Shown one piece after another: positions 3,867 to 55,376 of a DNA stretch of 64,000 nt. Source of the stretch: Anaerolineae bacterium (lineage in GTDB: Bacteria; Chloroflexota; Anaerolineae; B4-G1; SLSP01); the NCBI GenBank assembly GCA_049975525.1, contig JBNGCW010000001.1, positions 12,472-76,471 on the forward strand. The letters run 5' to 3'. Position numbers and translations under genes: made by a program. Under the pieces are notes generated by a model. The model worked only from the letters and a program-made list of their open reading frames with translations, did no database searches and was not told where the DNA came from. Position 1 is the first letter of the stretch. Each line of letters begins with the position of its first letter.

Positions 3867-4368
3867 GTGAGTCAAGTATACTCTAGAGGAAACCGGGGGC
3901 AAAATGAAAGGGCCGACTGCACTCAGGGAACCTGCTTCCGCCTGGCCTTTGGTCCGCTTTTTCATCCGCCGCAGGCCAGGCCCGCGACCATCACCTCTGT
4001 ACCGGCCACCGCCACTTTTTCATATGTTCCCCTTAACGCCATGTTCCCTCCAAATGATACCCTAACATAGAATTGTAGAGAAAATATGGAGATCCGATGG
4101 AGAGTCTGTTTTTCTTGGGAAACCGGAGAAAGCTCTGGGCTGCTGGGCTGCCTGGGCATGACTCGGCAATGAATCCCCCACAGGAGTCTCTTGCCAAAAT
4201 GCGTAGTTTTGGTATAGTAGGGATTGACATCGTGCTTTCCTTTAACGCCCCTCGGTGCCGCTCCATTGAGGGACGTTAACCCAAGGGTAACGAAAAAGCA
4301 ATGTCGTGGGGAGCGTTGTCCTTTATAATTAGGATAAAATATTCTTTGAACCTATAAGGAGGTTTAGT

Positions 4369-4719
4369 GTGAGAAGAGAACGGGGTTTTACGCTGATTGA
4401 ATTGTTGGTGGTGATCGCCATTTTAGCAGTGCTCTTCGGGCTGACTGCGCTGGCGTTGAATGGCGTGGGCAGCGATGCTAAGAACAGGGCAGCCCAGGCT
4501 GAAGCGGATATGGTGCAGACGGCGATTGATGTCTATTCGGCCGTCAACGACGGCGCGACGGTGGCAAATTCAGCAAACTGCGAGAAGGTTGGCCCGGGTA
4601 GTGAGTTCGGTGCTTACCTGCGCCGGACATCACGCTATTACATTGGTTGGTCCAGCAACACCGTCCTGACCGCGTCTGAGAGTGCCGATTGTTCTTCGCC
4701 GCTCTGGACCCGCGATTAG
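4369..4719 (+). CDS. type IV pilin-like protein (prepilin N-terminal cleavage/methylation domain)
   Basis: Leader MRRERG followed by FTLIELLVVIAILAVL with Gly-1, Phe+1, Glu+5. GTG start at 4369 with AAGGAGG RBS 6 nt upstream. 116 aa. Confidence 0.75.
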   Translation: MRRERGFTLIELLVVIAILAVLFGLTALALNGVGSDAKNRAAQAEADMVQTAIDVYSAVNDGATVANSANCEKVGPGSEFGAYLRRTSRYYIGWSSNTVLTASESADCSSPLWTRD

Positions 4720-4803
4720 TCATTTGATTGTTTTGGCAGACCTGCAAAACACCCCAAAGGTCCCCAGGGCTTTTGGGGTGTTTTCCTGTCCCCCGTTTGG
4801 CCT

Positions 4804-6933
4804 GTGACGGCGAGCCGACGGATTCTTCCTGTAAGCCCCATTGCCTGCGCCGCACGACATCTCCGCGAAGGGTTGATCTTGCTCGCGGTGGGACTCGTGC
4901 CGCTGGTCTTGAACCCTCGCGGGCTCAACTACGTGCTTCCCAGGACGGCACTGCTGCGCGGCCTGATCCTGCTGCTGGGAGCGGCGCACGTGGTCGCGCT
5001 GTCCTGGGGTGACGGCGCGCTTCATCCCAGACTGTGGTTGCAACGTCCGCTGGTGCGACCCATCCTGGCCGTCGGCGCGGTTACGTTGCTCACTGCCTTC
5101 ACCTCCCTCGTTCCGCTCACCAGCCTGTGGGGCAGCTACCACCGTCAGCAAGGCGCTTATCTCACGTTGCTGCTCGTCGCGTGGAGTCTGCTGGTCGCCG
5201 GCAGCTTGCGCACGGCAAGGCAACGCAGGCGTGTCAGCACCGTCGTGGCCATCACCGGCACCTTGCTGGCGATCACGCCCTTCGTGGAATCTTTTTACTG
5301 GCATGAGAATCCCTTCACCTGGCGACCGGGTGGTACCCTGGGCAATCCCATTTTCCTGGGTGCGACGTTGGTCATGACCCTGCCCTTCACGCTGGCAACG
5401 ATGATAGCGTCCGTACGCCAACCCTCCGAGGTCTCCGAGAACTCGAAGGCTTCCAGGCTACACCTCGTCTGGGGTACTGCGCTGCTCCTACAACTCGTGG
5501 CCCTGCTTATCACGCAGAGCCGGGGACCGTGGCTGGGCGCGCTCGCCGGATTGTCGCTCTTCGTTGCGCTGTTCCTTGGACGCTCGCACCGTCGCTGGAT
5601 CGTGGGCGGGCTGATCGTGGCTGTTCTCGTGGGGGGCGGGCTGTTGGCCGGGCTCAACATAGGCGTCGTCCCGGCGGAGCGTCTCTCCCGGCTGCCCTAC
5701 GTAGGACGTGCCGTCAAAGCGACCGATCTCAGCCGGGGGACGACGCGCGTCCGCCTTGTGCTCTGGCAAGCGGCTCTGCAGCTGGTGACCACCTGGCCTG
5801 AAATCGGCCTGGAGCCGGACGCGCTGTACCCCTTGCGGCCTCTCATCGGCTACGGTCCCGATACGAGTGCCGTCGCTTACACCGCCGTCTACCCGCCGGA
5901 GCTGGCGCACATCGAAGACCCGGACGCCATTTGGGACCGGGCGCACAATGAGCTGCTGGACGTCGTGGTCATGCGCGGGCTGCTGGGACTTGCGGCTCTT
6001 GGCTGGCTGGCGGTGGCGCTGGGGCAACGTGGGTATCGACTCTGGCGACACGCGGCTTCCTCGACGGACCGGCTTTGGGTCGCGGCACCGTTGGCGGCGT
6101 TGGTCGCTCACGCCGTCGAAGTGCAGTTCGCGTTTTCCATCACCACGACGCAGATGCTGGGCTGGCTCGCGGTCGCGTGGATTGCTGCCCTGCCCAGGGA
6201 GGCAGATGCCGCGTCCGTTACGCAGGACGCGCAGGCGTCTCTACCCGCGATACGCTGGCGGATCTACGCTGCGGTTGGTACGCTGTTGCTTGTAGCCGTC
6301 GCCTTGCGCGTCGAAGGCGGCGCGATCTGGGCCGACACGCTGGCCGGACGCGCTCGACGCCTGGATCGACCGGCGCAGTGGCAGGAGAGCCTGGCGCTCT
6401 ACGACCGTGCCATCTCGTTCGTGCCCTGGTATGCGCCCTATTATCAGTTCCGGGCCGAAGCGCTTTTCAATCTGAGCCGGGGATTGCCGGAGACCAAAGC
6501 GCCGCTCAAAGCGCAGCTTTTCGCCGCCGCCGACCGGACATTGGCCCGCGCCCGAGACCTGCATCCGCTGGATCTGGAGCACTATGCCAACGCCGGGATC
6601 CTGCACGCCGCCTGGGCCGAAATCGATCCGGGACATCTGGAAGAGGCGGTGGCGTACTACGAGCAGGCCTTCCGGCTTGCTCCGACGCGCGTCTCTTTGC
6701 GCGTCGAATTGGGCCGTATCTACCATCACCACGCGCGCTACCGCGACGCGCTGACGCAGTATGACGCTGCGCTCGCCATCGATCCCCGCAGCGTCGAAGC
6801 CTGCTACAGTGCGGGCCTCGCCTGGGAAGCGCTGGGCGAGAGCGGACGGGCCCGCGCCGCCTTCGAGCGAGCTCTGGAACTCGATCCCGCCTGTGAGGCC
6901 TGCAAAGTGGCCCTGGCCTCGCTTTTGGAGTAG
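4804..6933 (+). CDS. O-antigen ligase (Wzy_C) family polytopic membrane protein with C-terminal TPR repeats
   Basis: About 12 TM helices with a large periplasmic loop typical of the Wzy_C / O-oligosaccharyltransferase family; C-terminal ~200 aa are TPR-like (AYYEQAFRLAP...ALAIDPRSVEACYSAGLAWEALGE...). Sits immediately downstream of the pilin gene. Start uncertain (GTG 4804). Confidence 0.65.
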   Translation: MTASRRILPVSPIACAARHLREGLILLAVGLVPLVLNPRGLNYVLPRTALLRGLILLLGAAHVVALSWGDGALHPRLWLQRPLVRPILAVGAVTLLTAFTSLVPLTSLWGSYHRQQGAYLTLLLVAWSLLVAGSLRTARQRRRVSTVVAITGTLLAITPFVESFYWHENPFTWRPGGTLGNPIFLGATLVMTLPFTLATMIASVRQPSEVSENSKASRLHLVWGTALLLQLVALLITQSRGPWLGALAGLSLFVALFLGRSHRRWIVGGLIVAVLVGGGLLAGLNIGVVPAERLSRLPYVGRAVKATDLSRGTTRVRLVLWQAALQLVTTWPEIGLEPDALYPLRPLIGYGPDTSAVAYTAVYPPELAHIEDPDAIWDRAHNELLDVVVMRGLLGLAALGWLAVALGQRGYRLWRHAASSTDRLWVAAPLAALVAHAVEVQFAFSITTTQMLGWLAVAWIAALPREADAASVTQDAQASLPAIRWRIYAAVGTLLLVAVALRVEGGAIWADTLAGRARRLDRPAQWQESLALYDRAISFVPWYAPYYQFRAEALFNLSRGLPETKAPLKAQLFAAADRTLARARDLHPLDLEHYANAGILHAAWAEIDPGHLEEAVAYYEQAFRLAPTRVSLRVELGRIYHHHARYRDALTQYDAALAIDPRSVEACYSAGLAWEALGESGRARAAFERALELDPACEACKVALASLLE

Positions 6934-7206
6934 CCGCACTCTTCCGTGAGCACGCTTTCGTTTCACCTGCGTACCCTCAGGTATATCCGTTCGTCGTCAG
7001 GCACAGAACGCAGGGGGAATGCTGTTCTGTGCTCTCTGACGCCCCACCACCTACAAGCGGGCCTACAGGCATTTTGGGACTCCGCTGACGTTGCGTTGCT
7101 TACTGCGAGCGGAAGGCTCGTCGTCAAGCACACAGACGTCGGCCAGCTTGAAACGATATTGAAAAGCCTGCTATAATTCAGGTGTCGCAAAATCGGGTGT
7201 TTACGC

Positions 7207-8712
7207 TTGAAACAAGGAGGGGCCATGGAGGAGGACATCACCATCATCGGTGCCGGATTTGCAGGGCTTGCCGCCGGTATCTACGCCCAGATGAACGGCT
7301 ACCGGACTCAGATCTTCGAAATGTACGATCTGCCGGGCGGGTTGTGTACGGCCTGGAAACGCACACTATCGACGGTTGCGTTCACTGGCTGGTCGGTTCC
7401 TCTCCCGAAAGCAGTATGCATCACTATTGGGAGGAGGTCGGCGTTGCCCAGGCGCACGAGTTCGTCAACTTGAAGGAGTATCTGCGCTTTGAGAGCGCCG
7501 ACGGCCGTACCCTCGTTTTCTACACCGATGTGGACAGACTGGAGGCGCACTTGCTGGGGTTTTCGCCGCAGGACGCCCGGCCCATCAAGGAGTTCATTGA
7601 CGGCATTCGTCTGGGTCTTGACTTCGAGCTGCCCTCGGATGCGGGATGGTTGACTCGCTTGCACAAGGGGCTCAAGCTGGTGTTCAAAGGGCGGGCGATG
7701 CAGAAGTGGATGCAGCTTTCGGCCGAGGCGTTCGCCGCGCGTTTTCAAGATCCTGTGTTGCGTCGGGCTTTGCTGGAGATGTGGTTCCCGGAGTTCTCCA
7801 TGCTCTTTATGCTCTTTACCTTAGCCTGGCTGCACAACGAGAACGCGGGATATCCCATCGGTGGCTCCCTGCCCCTGTCCCGAACGTTGGAGGCGCGCTA
7901 CACGGAGCTGGGCGGCGTGATCCACTACAATAGTTGGGTGGAGAAGATCTTGGTCGAAGACGACCGCGCGGTGGGCGTTCGTTTGGTGGACGGAAGCGAG
8001 CACCGCGCCGGACGCGTGATCTCCGCGGCCGACGGCCACGCTACCATCTTCGAGATGTTGGAAGGACGGTACGGTGACGAGACGACCCGCGAGCCCTACG
8101 AGACGTGGCCTACGTTCCCCGCGCTCCTCTTCATAGGTCTTGGGGGTGGACCGCGCCTTTGACGAGGCTCCTGAGACGGTTGCCGGCGTCAGCTTTCCCC
8201 TGGAGCGGCCGACGAGGATCGGGGCGGCGGTGCGAGAGCGCCTGGCGGTGCGTCTCCTCAACTACGATCTTACGCTGGCGCCGCCGGGTAAGACCACCTT
8301 GGTGGTGACGTTGGCCGAGAGTTACACCTATTGGAAAGAGCTGGCGCAGGATCGGGCAGCCTACAAAGCCGAAAGAGAGAAGGTGGGACGTACGGTGGTC
8401 GCGCTGTTGGATCGACGTTTCCCCGGCCTGGTGCAGCAGGTGGAGGTAGTGGACGTGGCCACCCCGGTGACCTTCGAACGTTACACAGGCAACTGGAAGG
8501 GCAGTTTCGAGGGTTGGTTGCTCACGCCGCAGAATGCTTTCACCATGATCCGTCCCATGAGTCAGACGCTGCCTGGCCTGGCGCGCTTCTACATGTGTGG
8601 GCAATGGGTCGAACCGGGTGGGGGCCTTCCCACCAGCGTCATGTCCGGGCGGCGGCTGGTGCAGAGGTTGTGTGAGGAAGACGGGAAGCGCTTTGAGACC
8701 GAGAAGGCGTGA
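7207..8712 (+). pseudogene. FAD-dependent oxidoreductase (phytoene desaturase / CrtI-like family), disrupted by two frameshifts
   Basis: Rossmann motif IIGAGFAGLAAG in frame 1 (7207-~7355), homology continues in frame 3 (~7356-8145), then returns to frame 1 (8146-8712). The second shift is inside a GGGGG run at 8143-8147: removing one G restores ...FIGLGVDRAFDE. Confidence 0.55.
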
Positions 8713-10164: not shown

Positions 10165-10971
10165 TTACATCTGCATGCGTGCGATAAGTTCGACCAGATC
10201 CTGCACCACATAGTCCGGTTGATGAGGCGCATCCGCCAAATCCGTGCGTTGCGTCTCCCCCGTCAGCACCAAAACCGTGGTCACGCCCGCTTGCCCCAGG
10301 GCGATGTCCGTGTAGAGTCGGTCGCCCACCATGCACATCTCCTCGATGGGCACACCGGTCTTCTCCTCTACGGCCTCGATCAGCGGTGGATTGGGCTTGC
10401 CGACGATGACGTCAGGGGACCGACCGGTGGAGGCTTCCACCAACGCCATGATAGCGCCGATGTCGGGCATGAACCCGTCCTCGGTGGGGCAGTTCACGTC
10501 GGGATGGGTGGCGATGTAGGGCCGTCCCGCGCGCACGAAGTCGCAGAGCCGCCGGATCTTCGCGTAGGTCAGCGTGGTGTCGAATCCCAGCACGACGAAC
10601 TCAGGATCTTCTTGTACCAGCGCAAAGCCATGGGCGGCGAACTCCTCTTCCAGTGCCGGCGTGCCCACCAGGTAGATGCGGGCGCCGGGGTGCTGCTTTT
10701 TGAGGTAGCGCGCCGTGGCTTCGCCGGAGGTGAAGATCTCTTTCTCGTCCACGTCCAGACCCAGGCGGCGGAGCTTGGCCGCGTAGCGTCCCCGGTGGCT
10801 GGAAGAGTTATTGGTCAGGAAGAGATAGCGGGTGCCGCGTCGGCGCAATAGCTGGAGAAAACGGCGCGCGCCGGGCAGCAGCTGCTCCCCCAGGAAGACG
10901 GTGCCGTCCATGTCCAACAGGAAGCAGCGAGCGCTCCTGAGCCGGTCGAGGGGCGCGTTGACATCGCTCAT
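10165..10971 (-). CDS. HAD-IIA family sugar-phosphate phosphatase (NagD-like)
   Basis: DMDGTVF motif I, LTNNSS motif II, GDRLYTDI motif IV. Start ATG overlaps the stop of the upstream isomerase (ATGA). Confidence 0.8.
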   Translation of the reverse strand: MSDVNAPLDRLRSARCFLLDMDGTVFLGEQLLPGARRFLQLLRRRGTRYLFLTNNSSSHRGRYAAKLRRLGLDVDEKEIFTSGEATARYLKKQHPGARIYLVGTPALEEEFAAHGFALVQEDPEFVVLGFDTTLTYAKIRRLCDFVRAGRPYIATHPDVNCPTEDGFMPDIGAIMALVEASTGRSPDVIVGKPNPPLIEAVEEKTGVPIEEMCMVGDRLYTDIALGQAGVTTVLVLTGETQRTDLADAPHQPDYVVQDLVELIARMQM

Positions 10972-12392
10972 CGCTGGAGATAGGGGGTGTAGCGCCGCGC
11001 GGCGATAGGTGCAACGTCCAGCCAGGCAGCCAGCTCCAGGCTTGCGGCGGTGAAGTCACCGTAGACCAGAGGGTAGTGGTGCTGGAAGTGCGCGTGCATC
11101 AGTGTTTCAACAAGCTCTGGCACCGTGACCGCCTTCCCGTTGAGGCGCAGGTCGGTCAGCCAGCCGCGACTGCCGACGTAGGGCGGCGCTTCGTCCGCAA
11201 TGCGTCCGTCGAGCACCAGCATGCGGGCGAAATCCGGCGTGAAACCCATGACGGTGACGGGTCCCGGACGTAGCACCAGGTCGTTGCGCAACCCCATGGG
11301 CGGCCCCTCGTAGCCGTCGAAGAGCCAGAGTGAGCCCATACGGGATCCGTTCTCGTCGGCCAGAACCGGCGCCGTCGGTCCACAGTGCCAGAAGAGGATG
11401 CGCTCCTTCTCCGGATCGACGCCGGAGAGGTCCATCAATGTGACGACGTCGTCGCTCATGTAGTGTAGCGCCAACATGTTCACCGCTGAAGGGACGTCGC
11501 CTTCACAGGCTGTGACCTGCGCGTCGGCGTTGAGCTGGCCCACCACGCTGCAAACGGCGAGGTGGTAATCCTCCTGGAAGCGTGGCCAACAGCTGACCGC
11601 CAGCGCGTCCAGGTTCAGCTCTTCGGCAAGGGCTTGATAAGCAAGGTAGACGCGCGCCGAGCGCTCCAGCGCCGTCTCCTGGCCGGCTTCAAACTCGGCG
11701 GCGCCCGCCCGCAACGTGCTCTGGGCCGCGGCGACGCGGTCGCGTCCCTGTTCCTGCGCGCGCTGCAGCACCGCATCGAACTCTACCGGCACGACCTTGA
11801 CACCCAGTTGCGCCCGCAGGTCGCGCGGATCCACGATCAGGTTGTCGAAGCCGGGCGCGACGCCGCCGATGAGCCCTACGCGCGCGTCGCATAGGTTGAC
11901 CAGGGCCGTCAAGGCGCGCACCGTTGCCTGGAGCCGCGCGTCGAAGAGCGGCTGGCCCGGTCGCCCGTAGAACCACTTGACCGGGCGGTCGTAGTTCAGG
12001 AGATACGAGCCGACGATGCTGTTGTACATGTTGGCGGCGACGAAGCTGTTGAGCGGCAATCCGCCTTCCTCGGTCGGGGGGCCCTCGGGCACGGCCCAAA
12101 GGCCCAGGCGGGCGTCCAGCGCCGTGAACTCGTAGATGAAAGCCCCCGGTCCAAAGGAGCTGCTCTGCAACAGCACGAAGTCGGCGTCCCAGGCGGCCAG
12201 CTCCGCTGCCGCAGCCTCTGCCTGGGTTTGAGTGTACATGCCTTGTTTGACGACGTGCAGCTCGAAGTCCAGTTGGGCCGCCAGGGCGTTTAACGCCTCG
12301 GCGCTGGCCGCGTATTGGGTTTCTTTGTCGCCGCGAAAGGGAGTACACATCAAACCGGCTACTCCCACTCTAAGTTTACGTTTCGTTCCCAT
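10968..12392 (-). CDS. L-arabinose / L-fucose isomerase superfamily protein (AraA/FucI-like)
   Basis: About 475 aa. N-terminal segments (FVLLQSSSFGP) and C-terminal segments (ILFWHCGPTAPVL, HAHFQHH) align with AraA landmarks from memory. Start chosen at ATG 12392 (MGTKRK...) with GAGGGGAGA RBS rather than the ORF-track start 12476. Confidence 0.5.
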   Translation of the reverse strand: MGTKRKLRVGVAGLMCTPFRGDKETQYAASAEALNALAAQLDFELHVVKQGMYTQTQAEAAAAELAAWDADFVLLQSSSFGPGAFIYEFTALDARLGLWAVPEGPPTEEGGLPLNSFVAANMYNSIVGSYLLNYDRPVKWFYGRPGQPLFDARLQATVRALTALVNLCDARVGLIGGVAPGFDNLIVDPRDLRAQLGVKVVPVEFDAVLQRAQEQGRDRVAAAQSTLRAGAAEFEAGQETALERSARVYLAYQALAEELNLDALAVSCWPRFQEDYHLAVCSVVGQLNADAQVTACEGDVPSAVNMLALHYMSDDVVTLMDLSGVDPEKERILFWHCGPTAPVLADENGSRMGSLWLFDGYEGPPMGLRNDLVLRPGPVTVMGFTPDFARMLVLDGRIADEAPPYVGSRGWLTDLRLNGKAVTVPELVETLMHAHFQHHYPLVYGDFTAASLELAAWLDVAPIAARRYTPYLQR

Positions 12393-12497
12393 GCTATGTC
12401 TCCCCTCGTTCCTTATCAACACGAGGCTGATGAGGTCGCCTCGCATGTTGGTCGTGGCTGCCGCGGGTGACGACACGCCCCGAAGTTGTCTGCCCTA

Positions 12498-28993: not shown

Positions 28994-29068
28994 ACTCTTG
29001 CCCGGACGGTGGATTTCCACTATAATGATAGATGGAGATCATTCCCGTATCACGAGAAACGAAAGGCT

Positions 29069-30094
29069 ATGTCCAAGATCACCAATCCCCACGATCGGTT
29101 TTTCCGGGAGACGCTGGCGCGACCGGGTGCAGCGCGGGCGTTTCTGGAGCACTACCTGCCGGACAAAGTGCGGGCGGAGCTGGACGTGAGCGATCCCCAG
29201 TTAGAGCAGGATTCTTTTGTAGACACGGAGTTGCAAGCACACCGAGCGGATTTGCTGTATCGAGTAGGGCTGCGCCAGGGAGGAGGAGCGTACGTCTACG
29301 TGTTGTTCGAGCACAAGAGTGTGCCGGATCGCTGGGTGGCGTTCCAGCTGTTGAGGTACCTGGTGCGGATCTGGGAGCGAAACCTGCGGGAACGGGGAGA
29401 ATTGTGGCCGATCGTGCCGCTGGTCGTGTATCACGGGCAGGACGCCTGGTGGGTGGAGTTGAAATTTGGGGCGTTGTTGGAGATGCCGGGGGCGCTGCGG
29501 AGGTATACTCCGGACTACGAATATCTGTTGTGTGATCTGACGGAATATACGGACGATGCGCTGAAAGGCGAAGTGCTGTTACAGGTAGCGTTGCTGACGT
29601 TGAAGTATGTATTTCGACCGGAGTTGAATGAGCGCCTGCCGATATTGATGGCGTTACTGAGGGAGCTGGAGGCGCAACAGACGGGATTGGAGTACATAGA
29701 GACGGTGTTGCGGTATCTGACGCAGAGTGCGACCTACGTGGAGGTTGAGACGTTGAGAGAAGCGGTGGAGACCGCGTTTTCTGAGGAAGGGGAGGCACTG
29801 ATGTCTACCATAGCCCAGAAGTGGATAGAAGAGGGTTTGGAGCAGGGTCTAAAACAAGGATGGAAACAAGGACTGGAACAAGGACTGGAACAAGGACTGG
29901 AGCGGGGGAAGCGCGAGGGATTGCTGGCGGGGATCAGGTTAGGATTGAAATTGCGCTTCGGAAGCGAGGGGGTGCGGTTACTGCCGGAGATCGCCAAGAT
30001 TGAGGATGTGGACGTGCTGCAGGCCGTTCACGAGGCCTTGGAGACGGTGAACTCGCCGGAAGAACTGCGGACGCTATACTATCTCAATGCGTGA
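29069..30094 (+). CDS. Rpn-family recombination-promoting nuclease / putative transposase (PD-(D/E)XK, YhgA-like) with DUF4351-type C-terminus
   Basis: N-terminus MSKITNPHDRFFRE...YVLFEHKS...VVYHG is typical of Rpn/YhgA-like proteins. C-terminus has tandem GLEQGL(K/E)QG repeats encoded by a 12-nt repeat at ~29870-29905. Confidence 0.8.
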   Translation: MSKITNPHDRFFRETLARPGAARAFLEHYLPDKVRAELDVSDPQLEQDSFVDTELQAHRADLLYRVGLRQGGGAYVYVLFEHKSVPDRWVAFQLLRYLVRIWERNLRERGELWPIVPLVVYHGQDAWWVELKFGALLEMPGALRRYTPDYEYLLCDLTEYTDDALKGEVLLQVALLTLKYVFRPELNERLPILMALLRELEAQQTGLEYIETVLRYLTQSATYVEVETLREAVETAFSEEGEALMSTIAQKWIEEGLEQGLKQGWKQGLEQGLEQGLERGKREGLLAGIRLGLKLRFGSEGVRLLPEIAKIEDVDVLQAVHEALETVNSPEELRTLYYLNA

Positions 30095-36184: not shown

Positions 36185-39100
36185 CTAAGGGGTGCCGTTT
36201 TTGAAGATGAGGGGCATGTAGATGGTGTGGAGAGGTTCGATGGTGAAGGAGGCCATGGCACTATCTTGACCGTTGTTGAGGGACGTAACGTGGGCGGTGT
36301 TGGTGATGGTCACGCCGTGGAGCTCCCAGGCGCTGCCCACGGTGGCGGTGTAGACGATAGCGATGGGCTGCACGCCGGAGGGAAGGGCGCCGCTCCAGGT
36401 GATGGTGCCGGAGGCGTAGACGGGGGAGACGTTGGTGGCTGCTGTGAAGCCGCCGAAGGTGATCTCGGAAGGCAGGGTGTCGGTGAGGTGGACACCCATG
36501 GCTTCGGCTTCTCCGTTATTGACGAGGGTGAGGGTGTAGGTGACGACGTCACCCAGGGCGACGTTTGTTTCAGGCGTGACGGATTTGGTCAGATCGAGGG
36601 CCGGCGCGCCGACGACGGTGAAGGCGGTCTGCGCCTGTCCGCTGCCGGAGGTGTGACTGTAGGCGGCGGTGTTGGTGATGGTCGCGCCCCAGGTGTCCGC
36701 GTCGATGGTGGCAGGTAAGGTGAAGGAGTACAGACCATTGGCGGTGACGGTGATGACCTCGTCCAGGTCCATGCCGGTGACGCCGCTGGGCAGGGTGTCG
36801 GTGACGTGCACGTTGAGCGCGGGTGCGTAGCCCGTGTTACTAATCTGGATGGTGTAGGTAAGCGCGTCGCCGGGCTCCGGCGGATCTTGCTCGAGCGCAA
36901 CCTGCTTGTCGATGGCCAAATTGTGTTCGGCCCCGAAGGACCAGATATAATCCGAGCGCATCTCGGTGTCGTCGTAGTAGCCGGCCTTGAGCAGTGCGAT
37001 GGTGTAGCCGTGCGCTGGGTCGAGGGTGAGGGTGGGCGTGTAGAGGATCAGGGTGCCGGTGACGTTGACGGTGCCGTAGACGGGGTCGCTGTGCGTCTCC
37101 ACCGTCTGTGCAAAGCCGAACTCGCCATCAATGTGTGCGTGCCCGCCACCTTCCAGTTTGAAGGTGCTCGTGTTCACCCGGCTCGTGTCCAGTGGGCGGT
37201 TGAAGGTGACGGAGATGGGGCGGCTCACGGTCCAGGTGGCAGCATCGACGGCGGGATAGTGATCTATGACGATGGGGTCGCGCCAGTTGTGGACGGTGTC
37301 GGTGACGGTCATGACGCCGGTAGCGCCGTACTGCGCCGTCAGCTTGCGGTTGGTCAGCCCGACCAGGGTGCCCCAGTTCTCCACGGTCTCCCAGGAGCCG
37401 CGCGTGTACTTGTATTCCAGGTCGGTCCCGTCTGCGACGGTGGTCGTGTACACGTACTCGGTGGCGCTCAGCGGCGTGAGCGCTTGCCCACTGGCGTTCC
37501 AGGCGCTACCGAAGGCGTCGGCGTCGTTGCCCGCGATGTAGATGGTGTCGCCGAGGGGTGTGTAGTCCGGCACGGTGACGTGGAAGCGCAGCTCCACCAG
37601 ACGCGCTTCGGCGGTGGCCGAGGCTTCGTTGGAGGGGGTGGAGGCATTGAAGTTGCGGTCCAGCGCTCTGACGGTGTAGGTGTAGGTCTGACCCGTGGTC
37701 ACCGTGGTGTCGGTGTAGGCCGTCGTCGATGAGAGGACGCGACCCACTTTGACCGCCTCACCCGAGGTTTCGCCCTCCCCGTAGCGGAAGAGGTCGTAGG
37801 CGTAGAGGTCAGTGTCTGTCACGGCGTCCCAGGCCAGGCTGATGCTGCCCACGCTCCAATTGGTGACGCGGAGGTTCTGGGGTGTGGCCGGCGGTGTGGT
37901 GTCCGCAGCCGGTTGGACGTGGAGCAGGCCGGGGCTGATGACGTTGTCGGCGGAGATCACCCCGCTTTGGTCCGCGTAGGTCCAACTCCGCCCGTTGGTG
38001 GTGGTGTAGCGGTAGACGTAGTAGAACTCGCCGGTCTCTTCGGGCACTAGTTGCCCCTTGAATTCGTCGTTGTTACCAGCATCGGTGTTGAATTCTGCGT
38101 CAACCCACATGGTCCAGGAGATGGGCTGCGTGGTCGTCGGACCGAAGCCCACCTGCGCCGTCAACCCCGGCGTCGCCCCGCTATCGGAGGTTACGCCGTC
38201 GATCCAGACCTGACCGTAGATGTTTTCTGTAGGGGTGATGCCGATGGTGTGGGTGATTTCCGGGGGCCACTGCAGGTTGGCCCAGCCGATGGTGTCGTGA
38301 GGCATGCCGCTGGCCTCGTTGGAGGTGCCGCTTTTCAGCAATGTGGTGTCGTCTCGGCTGACGACGACGTAGTAGTAGGTGGTGGCGTTGGTCAGGCCGG
38401 TATCGGTGTAGACGGTGCTCGTGGTGGTGACCACAGGGGTGTAGCCGCCGCCGCTGACCTGGCTGCGGTAGAGGATGTAGCTGTCGGCGCCGGTGGCCGC
38501 GCTCCAGCCCAGCGTCAGCTCACCGCTGCCTTCGTTCGTCACGCTGAGGTCGGTAACGGCGTCCGGCGGCGTGTCCATGGTGCCGTTCAGCACCAGCACC
38601 GCGCCGCTCATGGCGGGCACGTCAGGGACGGTGATCTCGCCCGAGGTGGTGACGGTGTAGACCGCGCCACCGTCCAGCACGTCGATGAAGACGGTGCCCG
38701 CGCCCAGGTAGCCGGCGACGTCCACGGTGACGGTCTGTGATGTGCTACCGCTGTTGGCGATGATCACAGCCGCATCCGAATGATCGGCCTTCTTGCGCCC
38801 GTAAGCGTAGACCGCGTTGTCGTCGTCGACCAGCAGCGTCTCGAAGTCGCCGGTGCGCAGGGCCGGGTGATCGTTGCGGGCGTCGGTCAGCAGCTTGTAG
38901 TAATCCCGCAGGTCATCCTGAGTGGCCTGTGACTGCAGGTGGGTGTAGAAGGGGGTGCCGCTCTCGTCGAGCCAGGGGTAGGGGAGACGGTTGTAGGGAT
39001 CGTCCTCCCACTTGCCGCCGGCGTAGGTGGTTGGCCCGACCAGGCCGACCTCGTCGCCGTAGTAGGTGGTCGGCGCGCCGGGCAGCGTCATCTGCAGCAG

Positions 39101-42100
39101 CCAGACGCCCTTGAGGCGGGTGATGGCGTCGCTCCAGTCGTAGTTGGGATCGTCGAGCAGGGTGTCGTCGGTGCCGGTGGCGGCGTTGTGATCGAGCATG
39201 AAGAGGGCGCGGTTGGTGTCGTGGCTGCCCAGCAGGTTCATCATGGCGTAGAAGGCCTCCGGCGGATAGCGCTCCTCAAGGTAGTGCAGGCGCTCGTCGA
39301 GTTCGGAAGGCGTCAGCGGTTCGATGACGCCGGCGGAGCTGCTGGCGTTGTGGTCGTTGTCGGTGAAGGTGGAATCACGCCAAAAGCCCATAATGGCCGT
39401 GCCGAACTGGTAGTTCATGGAGGCGTCCCACTCCGGCGCGATAAGCCAGGGCGTGGAGTTGCCCCACTCCTCGCCGACGATGTAGGTGTCGCTGTAAACG
39501 TCGCGCACCGCGGCGCGGAAGCCCTCCCAGTAATCGTTGGTGGGATCGTTGGTGACGCCGGGGTCGACGTCGCCCGCCACGTCCAGGCGCCAGCCGTCGC
39601 CGCCCTGGGAGATCCAGTAGGGGGCGATGGAGGTCGTGCCGCTGGTCCAGACCATGGCGCGGACTTCGGCGTTGTCGGCCTTGAGCTTGGGCAGGCTATC
39701 GTAGCCGAACCAGCTCTCGTAGGTGGCGGCGTTGGGGGTGCCGTCGGAGCCGACGCACTCGCCGCTGCCCGGCGTCACGTCGGTGAAGTAGTACCAGTCG
39801 CGGTAGGGAGAGTCGGGACTCTCACAGGCGCCGCTCCCGTCGTTGATACCGGGACCGTCGGGGCTGGTCAAGTTGCCGTCGGCGTCGAAGCGCGAATAGC
39901 GGTCGAAGTAGATGCTGTCCGACGAGGTGTGGTTGAAGACACCATCGAGGATGACGTGCATGCCCCGGTTCGCCGCCTCGGTGGTCAGCGTGATGTAGGT
40001 GCTCAGGTCGCCGAAGTTGTCGTCGATGACGCCGAAGTCCGTCGTGTCGTACTTGTGGTTGGAGGGGGATTCGAAGATGGGATTGAGATAGAGCGCCGTC
40101 ACGCCGAGATCGTCCAGGTAGTCCAGCTTATCGATGATGCCCTGCAGATCGCCGCCGTAGAAGTTCTCCCCGTACTTGTTGGGGCAGTCGCCGTCGGTGT
40201 CGCGGGGGTCGCAGATGGGCGTATTCCAGTCGCTTCCCGTGGAGCGCACGATGGAGCCGTCGGGCAGATTGTAGTGGAAGGAGCCGGCGGGTGTGTTGTT
40301 GGTGGGATCGCCATCGCGGAAGCGATCGGTGAAGATCTGGTAGATGACGGCGTTCTTGACCCAATCGGGCGATTGGAAGGCGGGATTGTAGACGGTGATC
40401 TGCCAGCTGTTGTCCTGGCTTTCGTCGAAGGTCTGGCCAACGCCCATGGTGCGCTCGGCGTCGTCCTCATAGTAGTCGGTGTCCGTGCCGTCGATGGCGA
40501 TAAAGCGGTACCAGTGGAGGGTGGGATCGTCGCCGACCGGCACGTCCACCTCCCACCAATCGTAGGTGCCGTCACTGGAGACTACGCTCATGTCCAGGAG
40601 TTGCTGCGTGTCTTGGCGGTCGTCCCAGATGCGGACCTTGGCAGCGGTGAGGTCGTTGGCGAAGGCGCGCAGTCGCAGCGTGACGGTGGTGCCGGTGACG
40701 ACCGCGCCGACGGGCGAGCGGTAGAGGGGGTCGCGGGAGTCGTGGTAGAGGCCGTCCCACCAGACGTCATCATCTTGGGAAGCTGCTCCGGAGGGGATGT
40801 CAGGGATCGTGTAGGAGGCGTAGACCTTCTGCGTCGTTGCGTCATCCCAGCCGGTGGACTGATCGTCGCCGGGTACAGTGTCATAGGCGCCTTTTCCCCC
40901 GCCTCCTTGTGTGCCGAAGAATTCGAGGTCTACCGTGTCGCCGGCGCTCACCCCGATGTCGGCGAAGGGGATGGTCAGGCGCAGGCCCTCACCGTCGCTC
41001 CAGGCGACTTTGGAGTTGGGCTGCGAGGGGGAGCCGGTGTTACCGATGCCGCCCCAATCGATGCCACCGCCTGTGTCCCAGTTGCTGCCGTTCCAGGTGC
41101 GCAACTCCGTCCAGCCGTTGTCACTGCTGCTGTAGATATTACCCCGGATGTAGTAATCGGGTAGAAGCGTGTTGGTGGTCACGACGGGCGTGTAACCGAG
41201 GTTCTGCCAGGTAGTGGTATACGCCGCGGTGATGGCGTTGCCCCAAGGGTCGCCGGCCCCGCCGCCGCTCTTGGTGTTGATGGTCATACCGATCTGTCCA
41301 GTGGAGTTTGAGGTATCGTAATTCGGCATGGGAATGAACAAATGCAGGTTGGCATGGTCGGCCCAGACGTGCAGGCGGTGCACATCGGTCCAGGTGGTGC
41401 CGCTCCAGTCGGCTGGTCCCGGACTGGCGAGATCGCCCTCTGGATCGGTCGCCAAAGGCACGGAGACGAGTTGATACTGGGTGGTCGGGTCATCCCAGCC
41501 GGTGGATTGGCTGTCGCTGGGCACCGTGTCGTAGGTCCCTTTGCCGGTGCCACCCTGCGTGGCGAAGAATTGCAGGTGCACGTCGGACGGCGCGGGGTGG
41601 CCGAGGTCGGCTAAGGGGATGGAGAACTCGACGCCCTGCGTGTCGCTGTAGGCGACGTGGGTGCCGATTTGACCGCCACCGCTAATACCACCCCAGTTGG
41701 TGCCGCCGCCGGTCCACGTGCTACCGTCCCAGGCGCGCAGCTCTGTCCATCCCCCATCCTTAGGTACATTCCCGCGGATGACGTAGTCCGGTAGCATGGT
41801 CGCCGTGGTCTCTGTGCCGTCTACGTGATCGTAGCTGAAGGTGATGGCGTTGTCCCAGGGATCTGCACTATCCCCGCTGTTGGGCGCGGCGTCTATGTCC
41901 ATCACCAGCCCGATCTGCCCGGAAGAGACGGTGCTGGTGTACGAGGGCAGACTGGCGTAGACGTAGAGGGTGGTGGCGTCGGCTGCTACGTAGAGATCGG
42001 TTAAATCTGTCCAATGGGTGCCCTCCCACCCGGCGGGAGCCCCGAGGTCACCGGCCGGATCACTGGCGATTTTGACGTAATCGGTATCGAGGAGGCCATC

Positions 42101-42226
42101 TAGGGTGATGTTGGCCTCGTCGGCGAGCACGGGGTCTGGCGCCAGATCAGGGAAAAATTGTGGGTGGAGAAGGAGTCCAGAAAGAAGGGCTGTTAAAACA
42201 ACGAGCGTCAAGGTTTTCCTTCGCAT
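36185..42226 (-). CDS. giant secreted multidomain alpha-amylase/pullulanase-family (GH13) surface protein with DUF11/CARDB-type C-terminal repeats
   Basis: 2013 aa with signal peptide. Two duplicated ~300-aa N-terminal modules (DPxGDL...W.GT.WTD...), then a GH13 catalytic core (NAVIYQIFTDRF, GGDLQGIIDKLDYLDDLGVTALYLNPIF, HVILDGVFNH), then FN3/CBM-like domains and DUF11 repeats (DLTKSV...TYTLTLVNNG). Confidence 0.8.
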   Translation of the reverse strand: MRRKTLTLVVLTALLSGLLLHPQFFPDLAPDPVLADEANITLDGLLDTDYVKIASDPAGDLGAPAGWEGTHWTDLTDLYVAADATTLYVYASLPSYTSTVSSGQIGLVMDIDAAPNSGDSADPWDNAITFSYDHVDGTETTATMLPDYVIRGNVPKDGGWTELRAWDGSTWTGGGTNWGGISGGGQIGTHVAYSDTQGVEFSIPLADLGHPAPSDVHLQFFATQGGTGKGTYDTVPSDSQSTGWDDPTTQYQLVSVPLATDPEGDLASPGPADWSGTTWTDVHRLHVWADHANLHLFIPMPNYDTSNSTGQIGMTINTKSGGGAGDPWGNAITAAYTTTWQNLGYTPVVTTNTLLPDYYIRGNIYSSSDNGWTELRTWNGSNWDTGGGIDWGGIGNTGSPSQPNSKVAWSDGEGLRLTIPFADIGVSAGDTVDLEFFGTQGGGGKGAYDTVPGDDQSTGWDDATTQKVYASYTIPDIPSGAASQDDDVWWDGLYHDSRDPLYRSPVGAVVTGTTVTLRLRAFANDLTAAKVRIWDDRQDTQQLLDMSVVSSDGTYDWWEVDVPVGDDPTLHWYRFIAIDGTDTDYYEDDAERTMGVGQTFDESQDNSWQITVYNPAFQSPDWVKNAVIYQIFTDRFRDGDPTNNTPAGSFHYNLPDGSIVRSTGSDWNTPICDPRDTDGDCPNKYGENFYGGDLQGIIDKLDYLDDLGVTALYLNPIFESPSNHKYDTTDFGVIDDNFGDLSTYITLTTEAANRGMHVILDGVFNHTSSDSIYFDRYSRFDADGNLTSPDGPGINDGSGACESPDSPYRDWYYFTDVTPGSGECVGSDGTPNAATYESWFGYDSLPKLKADNAEVRAMVWTSGTTSIAPYWISQGGDGWRLDVAGDVDPGVTNDPTNDYWEGFRAAVRDVYSDTYIVGEEWGNSTPWLIAPEWDASMNYQFGTAIMGFWRDSTFTDNDHNASSSAGVIEPLTPSELDERLHYLEERYPPEAFYAMMNLLGSHDTNRALFMLDHNAATGTDDTLLDDPNYDWSDAITRLKGVWLLQMTLPGAPTTYYGDEVGLVGPTTYAGGKWEDDPYNRLPYPWLDESGTPFYTHLQSQATQDDLRDYYKLLTDARNDHPALRTGDFETLLVDDDNAVYAYGRKKADHSDAAVIIANSGSTSQTVTVDVAGYLGAGTVFIDVLDGGAVYTVTTSGEITVPDVPAMSGAVLVLNGTMDTPPDAVTDLSVTNEGSGELTLGWSAATGADSYILYRSQVSGGGYTPVVTTTSTVYTDTGLTNATTYYYVVVSRDDTTLLKSGTSNEASGMPHDTIGWANLQWPPEITHTIGITPTENIYGQVWIDGVTSDSGATPGLTAQVGFGPTTTQPISWTMWVDAEFNTDAGNNDEFKGQLVPEETGEFYYVYRYTTTNGRSWTYADQSGVISADNVISPGLLHVQPAADTTPPATPQNLRVTNWSVGSISLAWDAVTDTDLYAYDLFRYGEGETSGEAVKVGRVLSSTTAYTDTTVTTGQTYTYTVRALDRNFNASTPSNEASATAEARLVELRFHVTVPDYTPLGDTIYIAGNDADAFGSAWNASGQALTPLSATEYVYTTTVADGTDLEYKYTRGSWETVENWGTLVGLTNRKLTAQYGATGVMTVTDTVHNWRDPIVIDHYPAVDAATWTVSRPISVTFNRPLDTSRVNTSTFKLEGGGHAHIDGEFGFAQTVETHSDPVYGTVNVTGTLILYTPTLTLDPAHGYTIALLKAGYYDDTEMRSDYIWSFGAEHNLAIDKQVALEQDPPEPGDALTYTIQISNTGYAPALNVHVTDTLPSGVTGMDLDEVITVTANGLYSFTLPATIDADTWGATITNTAAYSHTSGSGQAQTAFTVVGAPALDLTKSVTPETNVALGDVVTYTLTLVNNGEAEAMGVHLTDTLPSEITFGGFTAATNVSPVYASGTITWSGALPSGVQPIAIVYTATVGSAWELHGVTITNTAHVTSLNNGQDSAMASFTIEPLHTIYMPLIFKNGTP

Positions 42227-42552: not shown

Positions 42553-42651
42553 AGAGGCTTTTGGTTCACTCTGATTGAGTGAGGTAAACATCTGATTCGG
42601 CGTACGATACGAAGTCATGGGCTTATGAGAATACTTTTGCCCTGACGCTAT

Positions 42652-44507: not shown

Positions 44508-47500
44508 TTACTGTCGGAATACCAGCGGCAAGTACAGCGTCGGCAACTCGATGTTCAGATACTCGCCTTTGGCTGTGGCCAGTGTCACGTTCCCGGCGGC
44601 GTCCACCGCCTGGATGAAATAGCCGATGTTGAACCACGATGAGCTGCTGGTCTCGCCGATCCAGCGCTCGCCGGTGACGTCGTTGGGATCACGCTCCAAG
44701 GGGAGGCTCCAGATGCGCGTGGGGGAAAGGAAGGTGGCGTAGACGGCTGCCACTTCACCCTCGCCGTCCAGGGCCTCGGCGGCGATGTGCAGCTGCTGAC
44801 CATCTACCGTGGCGACGGCGTTGCTTACAGAAGGTGGACCGTAGTCGGTCTCGTCAGCGGTGAGGAGGACGCCCACTTTCATCTTGTCGATGAGCCGCAG
44901 CTCCGCAGTGGGCGCGTTGAAGAGGGCGAAGGTAGCAACCAGCTGCGGTGTCTCTCCTGCCCGGTTGACGACGAGAGGATGGGTGGGTATCCAGCCCAGG
45001 TCGGGATTCAACGCGGGCTCGGGCTGGGCCGTGTCGGTGACGGGACGGGTGATGACGGGATCGAAGTCGGGATAGGCGGTGAGCGTCGCGGTGAGCAGCA
45101 GAGAGCCGTGAGGGATCGCGTTCCCGCTCTCGATTGCGAAGGAAGCCGTCGGCAGGAGCGGGCGACCGGTGGCGCCGTGCGCCCCGCCGTTCGCGGTGTA
45201 ATACACGCCATGGGCGCCGTCATGTCGTTCCAGCGTCGGCTCCAGCACATGCATCGTTATCTGTTGTGGGCTGACCCGCGGTTCGGTGAGGGGGCGCAGA
45301 GGCGTTTCTGGGGCTGTCTGAACGGTCACCGGCGTGTCGATTTCGTACATGGGCAGGCCGTAGAGCGTGGCCTCCATGATGGACTTGGCGTCGTAGGGGG
45401 TCAGGCCGCCGGCCGGAAGACTGTGCAGGTAGCGTACCTTGGCCCGGCGCAGCGCCTCGCCGACGGCCATGCGGTCCGCTTCGCCCAGCGCCTGGGTGAA
45501 GAGCGTCATCAGCTGCTCGGAGCCGGCGATACCGTCGTCGGTTCCGTAGCCGTAGCCCGTGTTGGCGATCCAGACGGCCCCCTGTTGTGCCAGCGCTTGC
45601 GGGAAGTCCGGCTTGGTTTGACTTAGGCTGGCGTCGCCGTCGGGCACGCTGTACCCGGCGTGACAGCCCATGGACCACGCAACGGTGCCGCTGAGCGCAG
45701 CGGTGGCGTTGACGATGTGCGTGTTGTAGAACGTTGTGCTGGTGTCCGCCGGTTGGAGCCGCCAGTGTTCGAAGTGCGCGTTGATGGATGCCAGATCCGG
45801 TGCCTCGGTCGCGCGGTTGGGCCAGGCGTTGATCAGCTGATCGGCGGTCCAACTCTCACTGATGAGGCTGTCGTCGACCTGGGCGGCGCCGTGGGTAGCG
45901 CCCAGATCCTCTGCGATCTGTCGTGCTGCGTCACTGAGGAAGTCGTAGCCGGTGACCAGGGCGTCCTGCGATGTTAACGTGGGCTGTGACAAGAACTGCT
46001 CGATCATGTCCGCGATCTCCGCCGGCGCCTCCACCAGCCGCCCCGTGGCGAGCAGCGGTCGCCAGAAATAGTGCCCGCGCCAGCCCAGTTCCTGACCCGG
46101 CGGCGTGCCGTAGGCGTCGTCGGTGAGGTAGAAGCCGCCTTGGGTGGCGGAGCGCAACGCGCCGGGCAGCGTCGCCGAGCCGTGAGTGTACTCGCGTTCG
46201 TTGGCGATGATCGCGTGATCCGGTTGTCGATACATGGGAATCTGAGCGTCGTCGCCGACCACGACAACGTATTGGATAGTATTGAACTGGGACAGTGTGG
46301 GAGAAATGATCTGGGTGCGAATGGCTTGGACGACGTTGTTAGCCATCTGAGGATCGCAGTAGTTTTCGTTCCAGATTTGATAGGTGGCCGCCACTTCCGA
46401 GTTAAACTCGACGGGATAGAGCAGACCTTGTGTCGCCTCGGCCAGCTCTTCGAGGCGGGAGGAGAGAGCGCCTATCTCGGTGTAAGTTCCGATCATGCGG
46501 GCGGGGTTGTAGAGGATCAGGGTCTGGGGGGTTGCACTACCCCAGTAGGGGGTGTGCGAAGTGGAGGTATAAGGTAGGTGTGTACACACCTCACCGGGGA
46601 TGGGTGTGGCTCGCGTGGAGAGCGTATACGGTGAGGGGGAGTAAGTCTCATCTTCCGTACCTACCACGAGAATGTAGTAAATACCGGCCTTATCGGCGGT
46701 CAGCTGCACCTGTTCCCCTTCGGTGTCCGCGTTGGCAGAGGTGGCCCACCAGCCTCGGGTCGCCCACCAGCCGCGCGTGGCCCACCAGCCTCGGGTCGCC
46801 CACCAGCCGCGTGTGGCCCACCAGCCGCGCGTAGCCCACCAGCCCCGGATGCTCTCCACGCTGGCATCCTCGGCTGTTTCGGCGCCGTCGTCCAGAGCTC
46901 CGAGATCCCGGCCGGGCGCGAGGGCGGGTAGGAGAGAAGGATCCGGCAGCACCAGCAAGTCGTAGTCGGCAGGTAAGTCTTCCAACGTCACGGTGAGCAC
47001 GGAAGGGGAGATGACCTCGACGGCGTACCAGTCGATGTCGCCCGGCTGCCCGATGGTGGCCGTCAGCTCGACATTGAGGTCAATGGGTGCGGCGGTATCG
47101 GGAGAGTCGTTGGGTTCGTAGTCATCCGTTATGGGCTCGCTTGAAGGCGCGAACCCTCGCTCGTGGCCCACCACCAGAATCTCACCCTCGGCGCTGATCT
47201 CACCCGTGCCATCGAAGGTTCCAAGCTCCGACATTTGTTTCTGATCCCACTCCAGACTGGCGTGAGGGGCGATATGACGTTGGGTATAGAAGACGGGAAC
47301 CCCGCCCGCATCGAAAAGCGTCAATGTGACCGTGACGGTCTCCGAGTTGGGATTGTGAACCCAGTAGCTCGTGGCATGCGTGCTGTGTCGATGAACGGCG
47401 GGTAAGTAGACAGGGCTCCCCGAGGCATAAGAGGGAGATAAGAGATAGCCGTCCACGTCGCCGCCTGCGGTGGCGTCGGTTGGCCTGTCGAGCACCAGAC

Positions 47501-48581: not shown

Positions 48582-48600
48582 GGGATCTCTCCTTATCGAG

Positions 48601-55197: not shown

Positions 55198-55376
55198 CAA
55201 AAAATCCGTTACATCCGTTCAGTATTCTGAGAGGTGCGACGCACTTAAGAATGCAAATCCTACTGCATTCTCATGAGCGTCGTAAGAAGCCTGTGGCTCT
55301 CGTGGATTTGAGCTCGAAAGTGCGTTGCACCTGTCGTCTGCTCACAGGACTAAACGATTACAAAATCCGTTACATC
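55198..55376. repeat. structured intergenic element: 17-nt direct repeats AAAATCCGTTACATC flanking a 15-bp long-range inverted repeat and an inner perfect hairpin
   Basis: Direct repeats at ~55198-55216 and 55360-55376. aggtgcgacgcactt (55232-46) pairs with aagtgcgttgcacct (55318-32). Inner hairpin gaatgca-aatcctac-tgcattc (55249-70). Confidence 0.45.

Follow-up and report, generated by a model that had tools for sequence, protein, structure and literature searches.

Does the membrane-bound ligase encoded directly downstream of a type IV pilin gene in an uncultured member of the Anaerolineae (Chloroflexota) glycosylate that pilin, and does it do so by a mechanism already described? Both genes lie in a 64,000-nt stretch of a metagenome-assembled genome (MAG), referred to here as the window, whose positions serve as coordinates; the window proteins are 100% identical to the Anaerolineae MAG proteins P0001 and P0121. 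The original prediction interpreted the pair, a prepilin gene followed by a gene for a Wzy_C-domain ligase with a C-terminal tetratricopeptide repeat (TPR) region, as a pilin glycosylation module of the TfpO type. The gene position, the link to pili and the WaaL-fold Wzy_C enzyme bear this out, while the size of the ligase, its TPR tail and the C terminus of the pilin do not match TfpO. Our comparisons suggest instead that the ligase most likely represents a previously undescribed kind, that is, a new subfamily, of pilin-glycosylating O-oligosaccharyltransferase (O-OTase). We favour with moderate confidence a model in which it would transfer an oligosaccharide to an internal Ser or Thr of the pilin, with the TPR domain docking the pilin.

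Both open reading frames (ORFs) are present where they had been placed, the pilin at 4369–4719 and the ligase at 4804–6933, and the 84-nt spacing between them is exact (4720–4803). The prepilin starts with a six-residue leader, MRRERG, cleaved between Gly and Phe ahead of FTLIELLVVIAILAVL, with Glu at position 5 of the mature protein. It therefore carries a class III signal: a short basic leader ending in Gly, a cut before Phe, Glu5 and a hydrophobic helix of ~20 residues (MRRERG followed by FTLIELLVVIAILAVLFGL). Scores above the cutoffs of both Pfam N_methyl (39.3 bits, E 3.8e-10, cutoff 21.2) and TIGR02532 (33.1 bits, cutoff 16.3) confirmed the prepilin identity. An AlphaFold model of the protein (predicted local distance difference test (pLDDT) score 87.4) is pilin-like, with a helix spanning residues 9–59 followed by a loop and a small β-sheet; a fold search gave no significant match (E > 6), the top matches nonetheless being type IV pilins. 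A second FTLIE-like DNA site at 42562–42579, matching the back-translation of GFTLIE with one mismatch, was ascribed to chance, as the stretch around it is intergenic or non-coding and holds no credible prepilin ORF.

The ligase matches Pfam Wzy_C over residues 226–329 (46.9 bits, cutoff 31.7; 51.5 bits for the membrane domain alone), and the same model scored above cutoff in all eight orthologues examined. Its fold is that of WaaL, with 12 transmembrane helices (12-TM) and, ahead of TM10, a large loop facing outwards, and its best structural match is WaaL (structure 7TPJ, 14% identity), not ArnT. Several TPR models match residues ~600–700, within the last ~110 residues, although these are generic hits: designed TPRs and OGT score just as well. 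Sequence searches of the PDB detected no O-OTase or WaaL: results for the full ligase profile were dominated by TPR proteins, the single membrane-domain sequence returned zero matches, and the membrane-domain profile returned only a spurious bile-acid transporter (E 0.24). The public NCBI annotation starts the protein (P0001) at GTG 4897, giving 678 residues. However, residues ~12–36, which are conserved among orthologues and form the first membrane helix in the AlphaFold model, are included only from GTG 4804. We consider 4804 more likely to be the true start, since the alternative would remove this conserved helix.

To place the catalytic centre, we used a MAFFT alignment of 51 sequences including WaaL from E. 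coli K-12. Ligase residues R240, R317 and H381 align with WaaL R215, R288 and H338, and are conserved in 51/51, 51/51 and 50/51 sequences, respectively; a pairwise hhalign comparison with E. coli WaaL aligned only the His motif (RAH381NE with HLH338NE). The WaaL residues R215, R288 and H338 are important for function and are conserved in PglL as R224, R298 and H349 (PMC3643930). The loop motifs GNPIFLG, SRGPW and DRAHNE are likewise invariant across very diverged members. Given its conserved Arg/Arg/His centre, the ligase looks like an active transferase of glycans linked to undecaprenyl pyrophosphate (Und-PP), as judged from the alignment. TM11 carries a further invariant motif, H436-x-x-E439-x-Q441 (6109–6126). 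In E. coli WaaL, the residues at these positions are D389, I392 and A394; judging from its spacing, the motif might be the counterpart of H400/E404, which are specific to PglL (PMC3643930).

The association of the two genes was examined across relatives. Orthologues of the ligase form a family of ~700-residue proteins in Chloroflexota that share 34–73% identity. We compared 62 loci from GTDB species-representative genomes, 18 of which were ortholog-class loci with usable upstream sequence (ligase 34–59% identical). A same-strand prepilin gene lies 111–761 nt upstream of the ligase in 15 of these 18, and the adjacency recurs in four further metagenomic loci (L063, L064/65 and L067). Among 331 pilin homologues, the nearest are 57–75% identical to the window pilin and are found on the same contigs as ligase homologues; in alignments, a far clade shares 32–43% identity. 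Other genes around the window pair encode a two-component system, an oxidoreductase pseudogene, Fur and a peroxiredoxin, and none of the other window neighbours is co-conserved with the ligase across the loci compared. Broad synteny was thus rejected as an account of the pair's conservation, with only scattered low-identity paralogues of the response regulator or kinase recurring.

In the relatives, the two genes belong to a pilus operon with the order (minor pilins, DUF11/CLIPPER protein)–PilM–(PilN)–prepilin peptidase (Peptidase_A24)–T2SSE ATPase–pilin–ligase, which is common to both ortholog clades. The pair closes the operon in L063, L064/65 and L067 and, by tblastn, in L003, L004, L006, L008, L010–13 and L018. 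Pilus machinery genes gave zero matches within the 64-kb window by tblastn and in a Pfam survey, and the window pair appears from this comparison to be split off from the operon, yet still together. Functional coupling of the pilin and ligase genes is well supported by this comparative genomics. In one lineage, a DUF2281–PIN toxin–antitoxin pair sits between pilin and ligase (L064 7333–7993; L065 1903–2563), and the pilin and ligase genes stay in the operon.

The gap between the genes contains an element missing from the original prediction's account of it, an intrinsic-terminator-like hairpin. Its 18-bp stem includes two G·U pairs and ends in UUUU (terminator scan), and its predicted RNA fold has a free energy of −38.2 kcal/mol (z −3.26), with 0/200 shuffled sequences equally stable. 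Strong hairpins, several with T-runs, also follow the pilin stop codon in L003, L004, L008, L012, L013, L015, L016 and L018; the recurrence in at least eight loci is a lower bound, as the fixed-length scan windows overlooked the window's own hairpin. The ligase start lies only 19 nt beyond the hairpin, a stretch that contains no promoter-like site, so the ligase must be expressed by read-through or from upstream promoters; five promoter-like sites were found in the region by consensus scan compared with 1.0 expected. A terminator at this position argues against simple equal co-expression, and such an arrangement would suit a structural subunit needed in large amounts and, behind it, an enzyme needed in small ones. 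In our model, the pilin would be made abundantly from its own promoter and a strong ribosome-binding site, most transcripts would end at the hairpin, and read-through would yield little ligase.

We then asked which pilin residue might accept a glycan. The original prediction had pointed to a Ser-rich tail compatible with C-terminal O-glycosylation, and the ending it gave, SADCSSPLWTRD, is present but is not conserved: tails of orthologous pilins read CTPALWP or CDPALWTRP, and the distant clade lacks both Cys and tail (the Cys residues of the window pilin are Cys71 and Cys108). The last residue of the window pilin is Asp, and a terminal Ser or Thr occurs in 0/30 cognate pilins, the majority of which have Pro there; nor does a Ser/Thr end occur in the pilins encoded beside Wzy_C genes in the candidate phyla radiation (CPR). 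As TfpO and TfpM modify a C-terminal Ser/Thr (PMC9829042), a C-terminal mechanism of the TfpO type is excluded as the conserved one. By contrast with the tail, S88 (codon 4630–4632, in the motif L84-R85-R86-T87-S88) is Ser or Thr in 30/30 pilins, the sole such position in the head domain, while T64 is Ser or Thr in 24/30; both fall in the non-helical stretch 60–90 of the pilin model. From this alignment, S88, within a conserved L-R-x-[ST]-[ST] motif, is the best candidate acceptor, the alternative being the Ser/Thr-rich loop after the N-terminal helix (T64).

The TPR domain would have to reach such an acceptor from outside the membrane. WaaL ends after TM12 (403-residue chain), whereas the window ligase continues through a low-confidence linker (residues 467–477 in the AlphaFold model) into a 13th helix at residues 483–519. 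Hydropathy, the positive-inside rule and homology to the 12-TM WaaL predict that loop 285–382, with R317 and H381, faces outwards and that helix 483–519 puts the TPR domain on the outside too. An invariant CxxC near the ligase C terminus (C697, C700) is compatible with an extracytoplasmic site without proving it. In our working model, the ligase would act at the outer face of the cytoplasmic membrane, where it would accept a glycan pre-assembled on Und-PP, the presumed donor, and hand it over en bloc, via R240/R317/H381, to a hydroxyl group on a Ser or Thr of the pilin while the latter is still membrane-anchored and not yet polymerized. The TPR domain would dock the pilin head on the outer face and so provide acceptor specificity, and the acceptor would be an internal residue, with S88 the best candidate, rather than a C-terminal one.

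The pilus link extends into part of a much larger family. In an exhaustive profile search, 18,583 representatives passed E ≤ 1e-3 and 1,926 passed E ≤ 1e-30, with just three scoring in the ortholog range, and most members of this wider Wzy_C+TPR family lack a pilus neighbour. Among those that have one, a Patescibacteria locus (L032) shows the order PilC(T2SSF)–pilin–pilin–Wzy_C (738 residues)–prepilin peptidase, and in a member of the Kerfeldbacteria (L046) a pilin gene is followed by a TfpO-sized, 421-residue Wzy_C-only protein without TPR. In four loci (L033, L037, L038 and L050), a prepilin peptidase gene is followed directly by a gene for a ~860-residue Wzy_C+TPR protein, with a PilB-type ATPase gene adjoining the pair in L038. 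We constructed a neighbour-joining tree, crude and without bootstrap, from 51 sequences and 430 membrane-domain columns with E. coli WaaL as outgroup. In this tree, pilus-linked proteins (the two Anaerolineae clades, the prepilin-peptidase-adjacent clade and the Patescibacteria members) separate from a clade of 890–1340-residue paralogues, 0/17 of which have a pilus neighbour. One Wzy_C+TPR protein, from a contig binned as the archaeon ‘Candidatus ainarchaeum’ (L034), groups closely with the bacterial proteins of L033 and L050, and its contig is probably a mis-binned bacterial one.

Several observations weigh against pilin-directed transfer. The organism is an uncultured MAG, and modification of its pilin is a prediction. 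The Wzy_C family also spans polymerases and lipid ligases, such that the acceptor is not fixed by sequence alone. The pilin neighbour is missing at three loci: L001 and L002 have unrelated genes upstream, and at L005 the ligase is truncated and pilus genes lie a few kb downstream. In one clade of the wider family, the conserved neighbour is the prepilin peptidase and not the pilin, and the link could thus be to the pilus machine in general. No initiating phosphoglycosyltransferase, flippase or other glycan-donor gene was found in the 64-kb window. The conservation of S88 may be structural. Finally, the outward position of the TPR domain is deduced from homology, hydropathy and the AlphaFold model, and DSSP analysis of that model gives one long helix at residues 240–285, where two membrane passes are expected.

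Of the competing explanations, the best placed is that the acceptor is not a protein: the ligase would join or polymerize a surface polysaccharide, attached to a lipid anchor, peptidoglycan or a sheath polymer, in coordination with pili, while the pilin remains unmodified. The breadth of Wzy_C, which covers O-antigen ligases as well as polymerases, suits this explanation, as does the identity of the closest solved structure, WaaL. The nearest NCBIfam match is the uncharacterised IctB family, far below cutoff, and the wider family is very large (1,926 clusters at E ≤ 1e-30) and mostly without pilus neighbours; pili and exopolysaccharide are, moreover, functionally coupled in some bacteria. Against it, no glycosyltransferase, flippase or chain-length genes accompany the ligase, and no glycan or S-layer genes lie near it, in the window or the relatives examined. 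The conserved partners of the ligase are only the pilin, prepilin peptidase and other pilus genes, and the phylum reportedly lacks lipopolysaccharide (LPS). We regard a polysaccharide acceptor as unlikely.

A second explanation retains the protein acceptor but widens the substrate range. The ligase would be a general protein O-OTase similar to Neisseria PglL, reading disordered Ser/Thr-rich segments through its TPR domain, with the pilin as its most abundant or ancestral substrate. PglL-type enzymes with larger C-terminal periplasmic domains do glycosylate many proteins at internal sequons, their genes often lying beside a pilin gene, and TPR domains of the OGT type accept many substrates; the orthologues at L001 and L002 are intact despite the loss of their pilin neighbour. 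However, the ligase gene closes pilus operons in two diverged clades and has kept its place beside the pilin gene where the operon is broken, as in the window, which fits a dedicated partner better than a general enzyme. The PglL signatures are also missing: hidden Markov models (HMMs) specific to PglL separate it from WaaL (PMC3643930), and the corresponding Pfam models, PglL_A (PF15864) and Wzy_C_2, matched none of the eight orthologues at E ≤ 10, nor the full ligase at E ≤ 0.1. On balance, a general enzyme seems rather improbable.

Far less credible is a structural or assembly role within the pilus machine of single-membrane bacteria, in which a TPR scaffold comparable to PilF, PilW or TadD would sit on a Wzy_C-like anchor with little or no transferase activity. 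The invariance of the catalytic residues and loop motifs across very diverged members would be unexpected for a mere scaffold, the TPR matches point to no particular scaffold protein, and the Wzy_C-only protein of L046 follows a pilin gene with no TPR at all. Chance adjacency of two unrelated genes, to which the strong terminator between them and the lack of nearby pilus machinery in the window might point, is effectively refuted by the synteny data, given that the adjacency holds in 15/18 loci down to 34% ligase identity while other neighbours change, and that the pilin and ligase homologue lists share contigs.

If pilin-directed O-oligosaccharyl transfer is correct, it would carry pilin glycosylation into phyla where it is unexplored. 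To our knowledge, the enzymes of pilin O-glycosylation (TfpO, TfpM, PglL, PglS and TfpW) come almost only from Proteobacteria; such enzymes are the working tools of bioconjugate-vaccine glycoengineering. The window would then supply an enzyme–substrate pair for which both the site, S88, and the catalytic residues are predicted, as well as a new O-OTase scaffold whose specificity could perhaps be re-targeted via the TPR domain. Pilus linkage also splits a very large, mostly unannotated Wzy_C+TPR family into linked and unlinked branches. Our non-exhaustive literature search turned up no description of pilus loci in Chloroflexota or the CPR that contain Wzy_C or O-antigen-ligase-like genes, and a recent study of Saccharibacteria pili only predicts glycosylation sites and calls the process there unexplored. 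More tentatively, and with greater doubt than for the window pair itself, these proteins might form a distinct, unrecognised class of pilus-operon O-OTases that is widespread in single-membrane lineages (Chloroflexota, Patescibacteria and others) and guided to a conserved internal Ser/Thr (S88 in the window pilin) by extracytoplasmic TPR domains that would capture the pilin. Pilin glycosylation would in that case be an ancient, built-in step of pilus biogenesis and not a proteobacterial speciality.

Features of the pilin–ligase locus, in window positions.
Feature	Position	Strand	Details
Promoter-like site TTGCCA-16-TATAGT with TG	4191–4218	+	~150 nt 5′ of pilin start; putative, consensus scan only
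Shine–Dalgarno sequence AAGGAGG	4356–4362	+	6 nt 5′ of pilin GTG; direct sequence reading
Type IV prepilin gene	4369–4719	+	GTG start, 116 aa
Intrinsic-terminator-like hairpin	4746–4784	+	5′ arm 4746–4763, loop 4764–4766, 3′ arm 4767–4784
Ligase gene, Wzy_C + TPR	4804–6933	+	GTG start, 709 aa
Ligase residues 1–465, 12-TM WaaL-fold (Wzy_C) catalytic domain	4804–6198	+	Large outward loop 285–382
Catalytic-centre codons	R240 5521–5523; R317 5752–5754; H381 5944–5946	+	Invariant residues
Extra (13th) TM helix, residues 483–519	6250–6360	+	Hydropathy, positive-inside rule, AlphaFold; joins WaaL-like domain to TPR
C-terminal TPR domain, residues ~520–709, and stop codon	6361–6933	+	Predicted on outer face of membrane

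Several other features of the window were recorded. Downstream of the ligase, at 7182–8712, a gene resembling FAD/NAD-binding amine oxidases or phytoene desaturases appears split over three overlapping ORFs in two frames (7207–7473, Rossmann N terminus; 7182–8162, Amino_oxidase; 8140–8712); two frameshifts have made it a pseudogene, or else the assembly is wrong here. A 2013-residue secreted protein encoded at 36185–42226 (−) combines a GH13 α-amylase domain with fn3, Big_5 and C-terminal DUF11 (CLIPPER) repeats; DUF11/CLIPPER proteins are encoded inside the pilus operons of the relatives L063 and L064, and the grappling-hook filaments of another Chloroflexota species are built from a DUF11 protein. 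A pair of neighbouring, very large ORFs occupies 44508–48740 (−) and 48601–52728 (−): one, of 1410 residues, has no Pfam match, and the other, of 1375 residues, is a STAND-type signalling protein that joins an adenylate/guanylate cyclase domain to an AAA_16 ATPase and MalT-like TPR repeats. A YhgA-like (Transposase_31) putative transposase gene lies at 29009–30094 (+), and the ORFs at 10968–12476 (−; 502 residues) and 54004–55140 (−; 378 residues) have no Pfam match at E ≤ 0.001. The window's only GT4 glycosyltransferase gene (55370–56722) was considered as a glycan-donor locus and rejected, as it adjoins a sugar ABC transporter and LacI/DeoR regulators.

How, then, does the pair compare with known systems? 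The arrangement most resembles that of TfpO (also named PilO; group I P. aeruginosa and Acinetobacter) and TfpM (Moraxellaceae), Wzy_C enzymes encoded on the same strand directly 3′ of the major pilin gene, with which the ligase shares the conserved catalytic His and a presumed Und-PP-linked oligosaccharide donor (PMC9829042, PMC3643930). However, TfpO and TfpM comprise 420–470 residues, TfpO itself 440–470, with no C-terminal domain, whereas the window ligase has 709, including the extra TM helix and a TPR domain of ~190 residues. They use a C-terminal Ser/Thr acceptor in proteobacterial hosts, while the window derives from Chloroflexota, which are reported to lack LPS.

Neisseria PglL and Acinetobacter PglS share with the ligase the Wzy_C domain, the Arg/Arg/His centre, a larger size (520–620 residues) and a C-terminal periplasmic domain. 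Their acceptors are internal Ser residues, their genes often adjoin that of a pilin-like substrate, and an internal site is likewise implied by the window pilin alignment. Of 31 pglL homologues, 21 adjoin pilin genes, and such pairs have been validated experimentally (PMC3643930). Recognition of internal sequons has been suggested as a function of the larger C-terminal periplasmic domain of PglS (PMC9829042), which fits the model proposed here for the window ligase. In contrast to PglL, the C-terminal domain of the window ligase is a canonical multi-repeat TPR that follows an extra TM helix. By the tests run, namely size, pilin C terminus and HMMs set against the described features of the reference enzymes, the ligase is not a member of TfpO, TfpM or PglL.

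The original prediction also held that a TPR tail is not part of known TfpO or PglL; to call such a tail foreign to known enzymes of pilin or protein O-glycosylation would be overstated, as TfpW and WsfB carry one and, according to a review, so does PglL (PMC2943079 for WsfB and PglL). In group IV P. aeruginosa, the gene directly 3′ of pilA encodes TfpW, a polytopic membrane glycosyltransferase whose C-terminal TPR domain is large and periplasmic and which the cell needs to glycosylate its pilin at internal Ser/Thr sites (bioRxiv 10.1101/2020.04.19.049825). The TPR domain and the gene position are both present in the window, and the outward site of the domain is predicted. However, TfpW has a GT-C/ArnT-like domain with a DDX motif and uses D-arabinofuranose, whereas the ligase has the WaaL/Wzy_C fold. 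WsfB, the S-layer O-OTase of Paenibacillus alvei, matches by description in its Wzy_C domain followed by a C-terminal TPR motif, its single-membrane host and its surface-protein acceptor (PMC2943079). The two differ in context and acceptor: relatives of the ligase gene lie in pilus operons that have no glycan genes close by, whereas the WsfB gene belongs to a cluster for S-layer glycan biosynthesis and its product acts on Tyr residues of the S-layer protein.

WaaL itself has neither TPR tail nor 13th helix, is encoded in LPS core loci and uses lipid A–core as acceptor. As Chloroflexota are reported to lack LPS and β-barrel assembly machinery (BAM) genes, and as the ligase gene lies outside polysaccharide loci in the window and the relatives examined, a true WaaL role is unlikely; the reported absence of LPS also makes a protein acceptor more plausible than lipid A–core. 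As judged from fold and domain comparisons, the ligase combines a catalytic fold of the TfpO/PglL type with a TPR tail of the TfpW/WsfB type.

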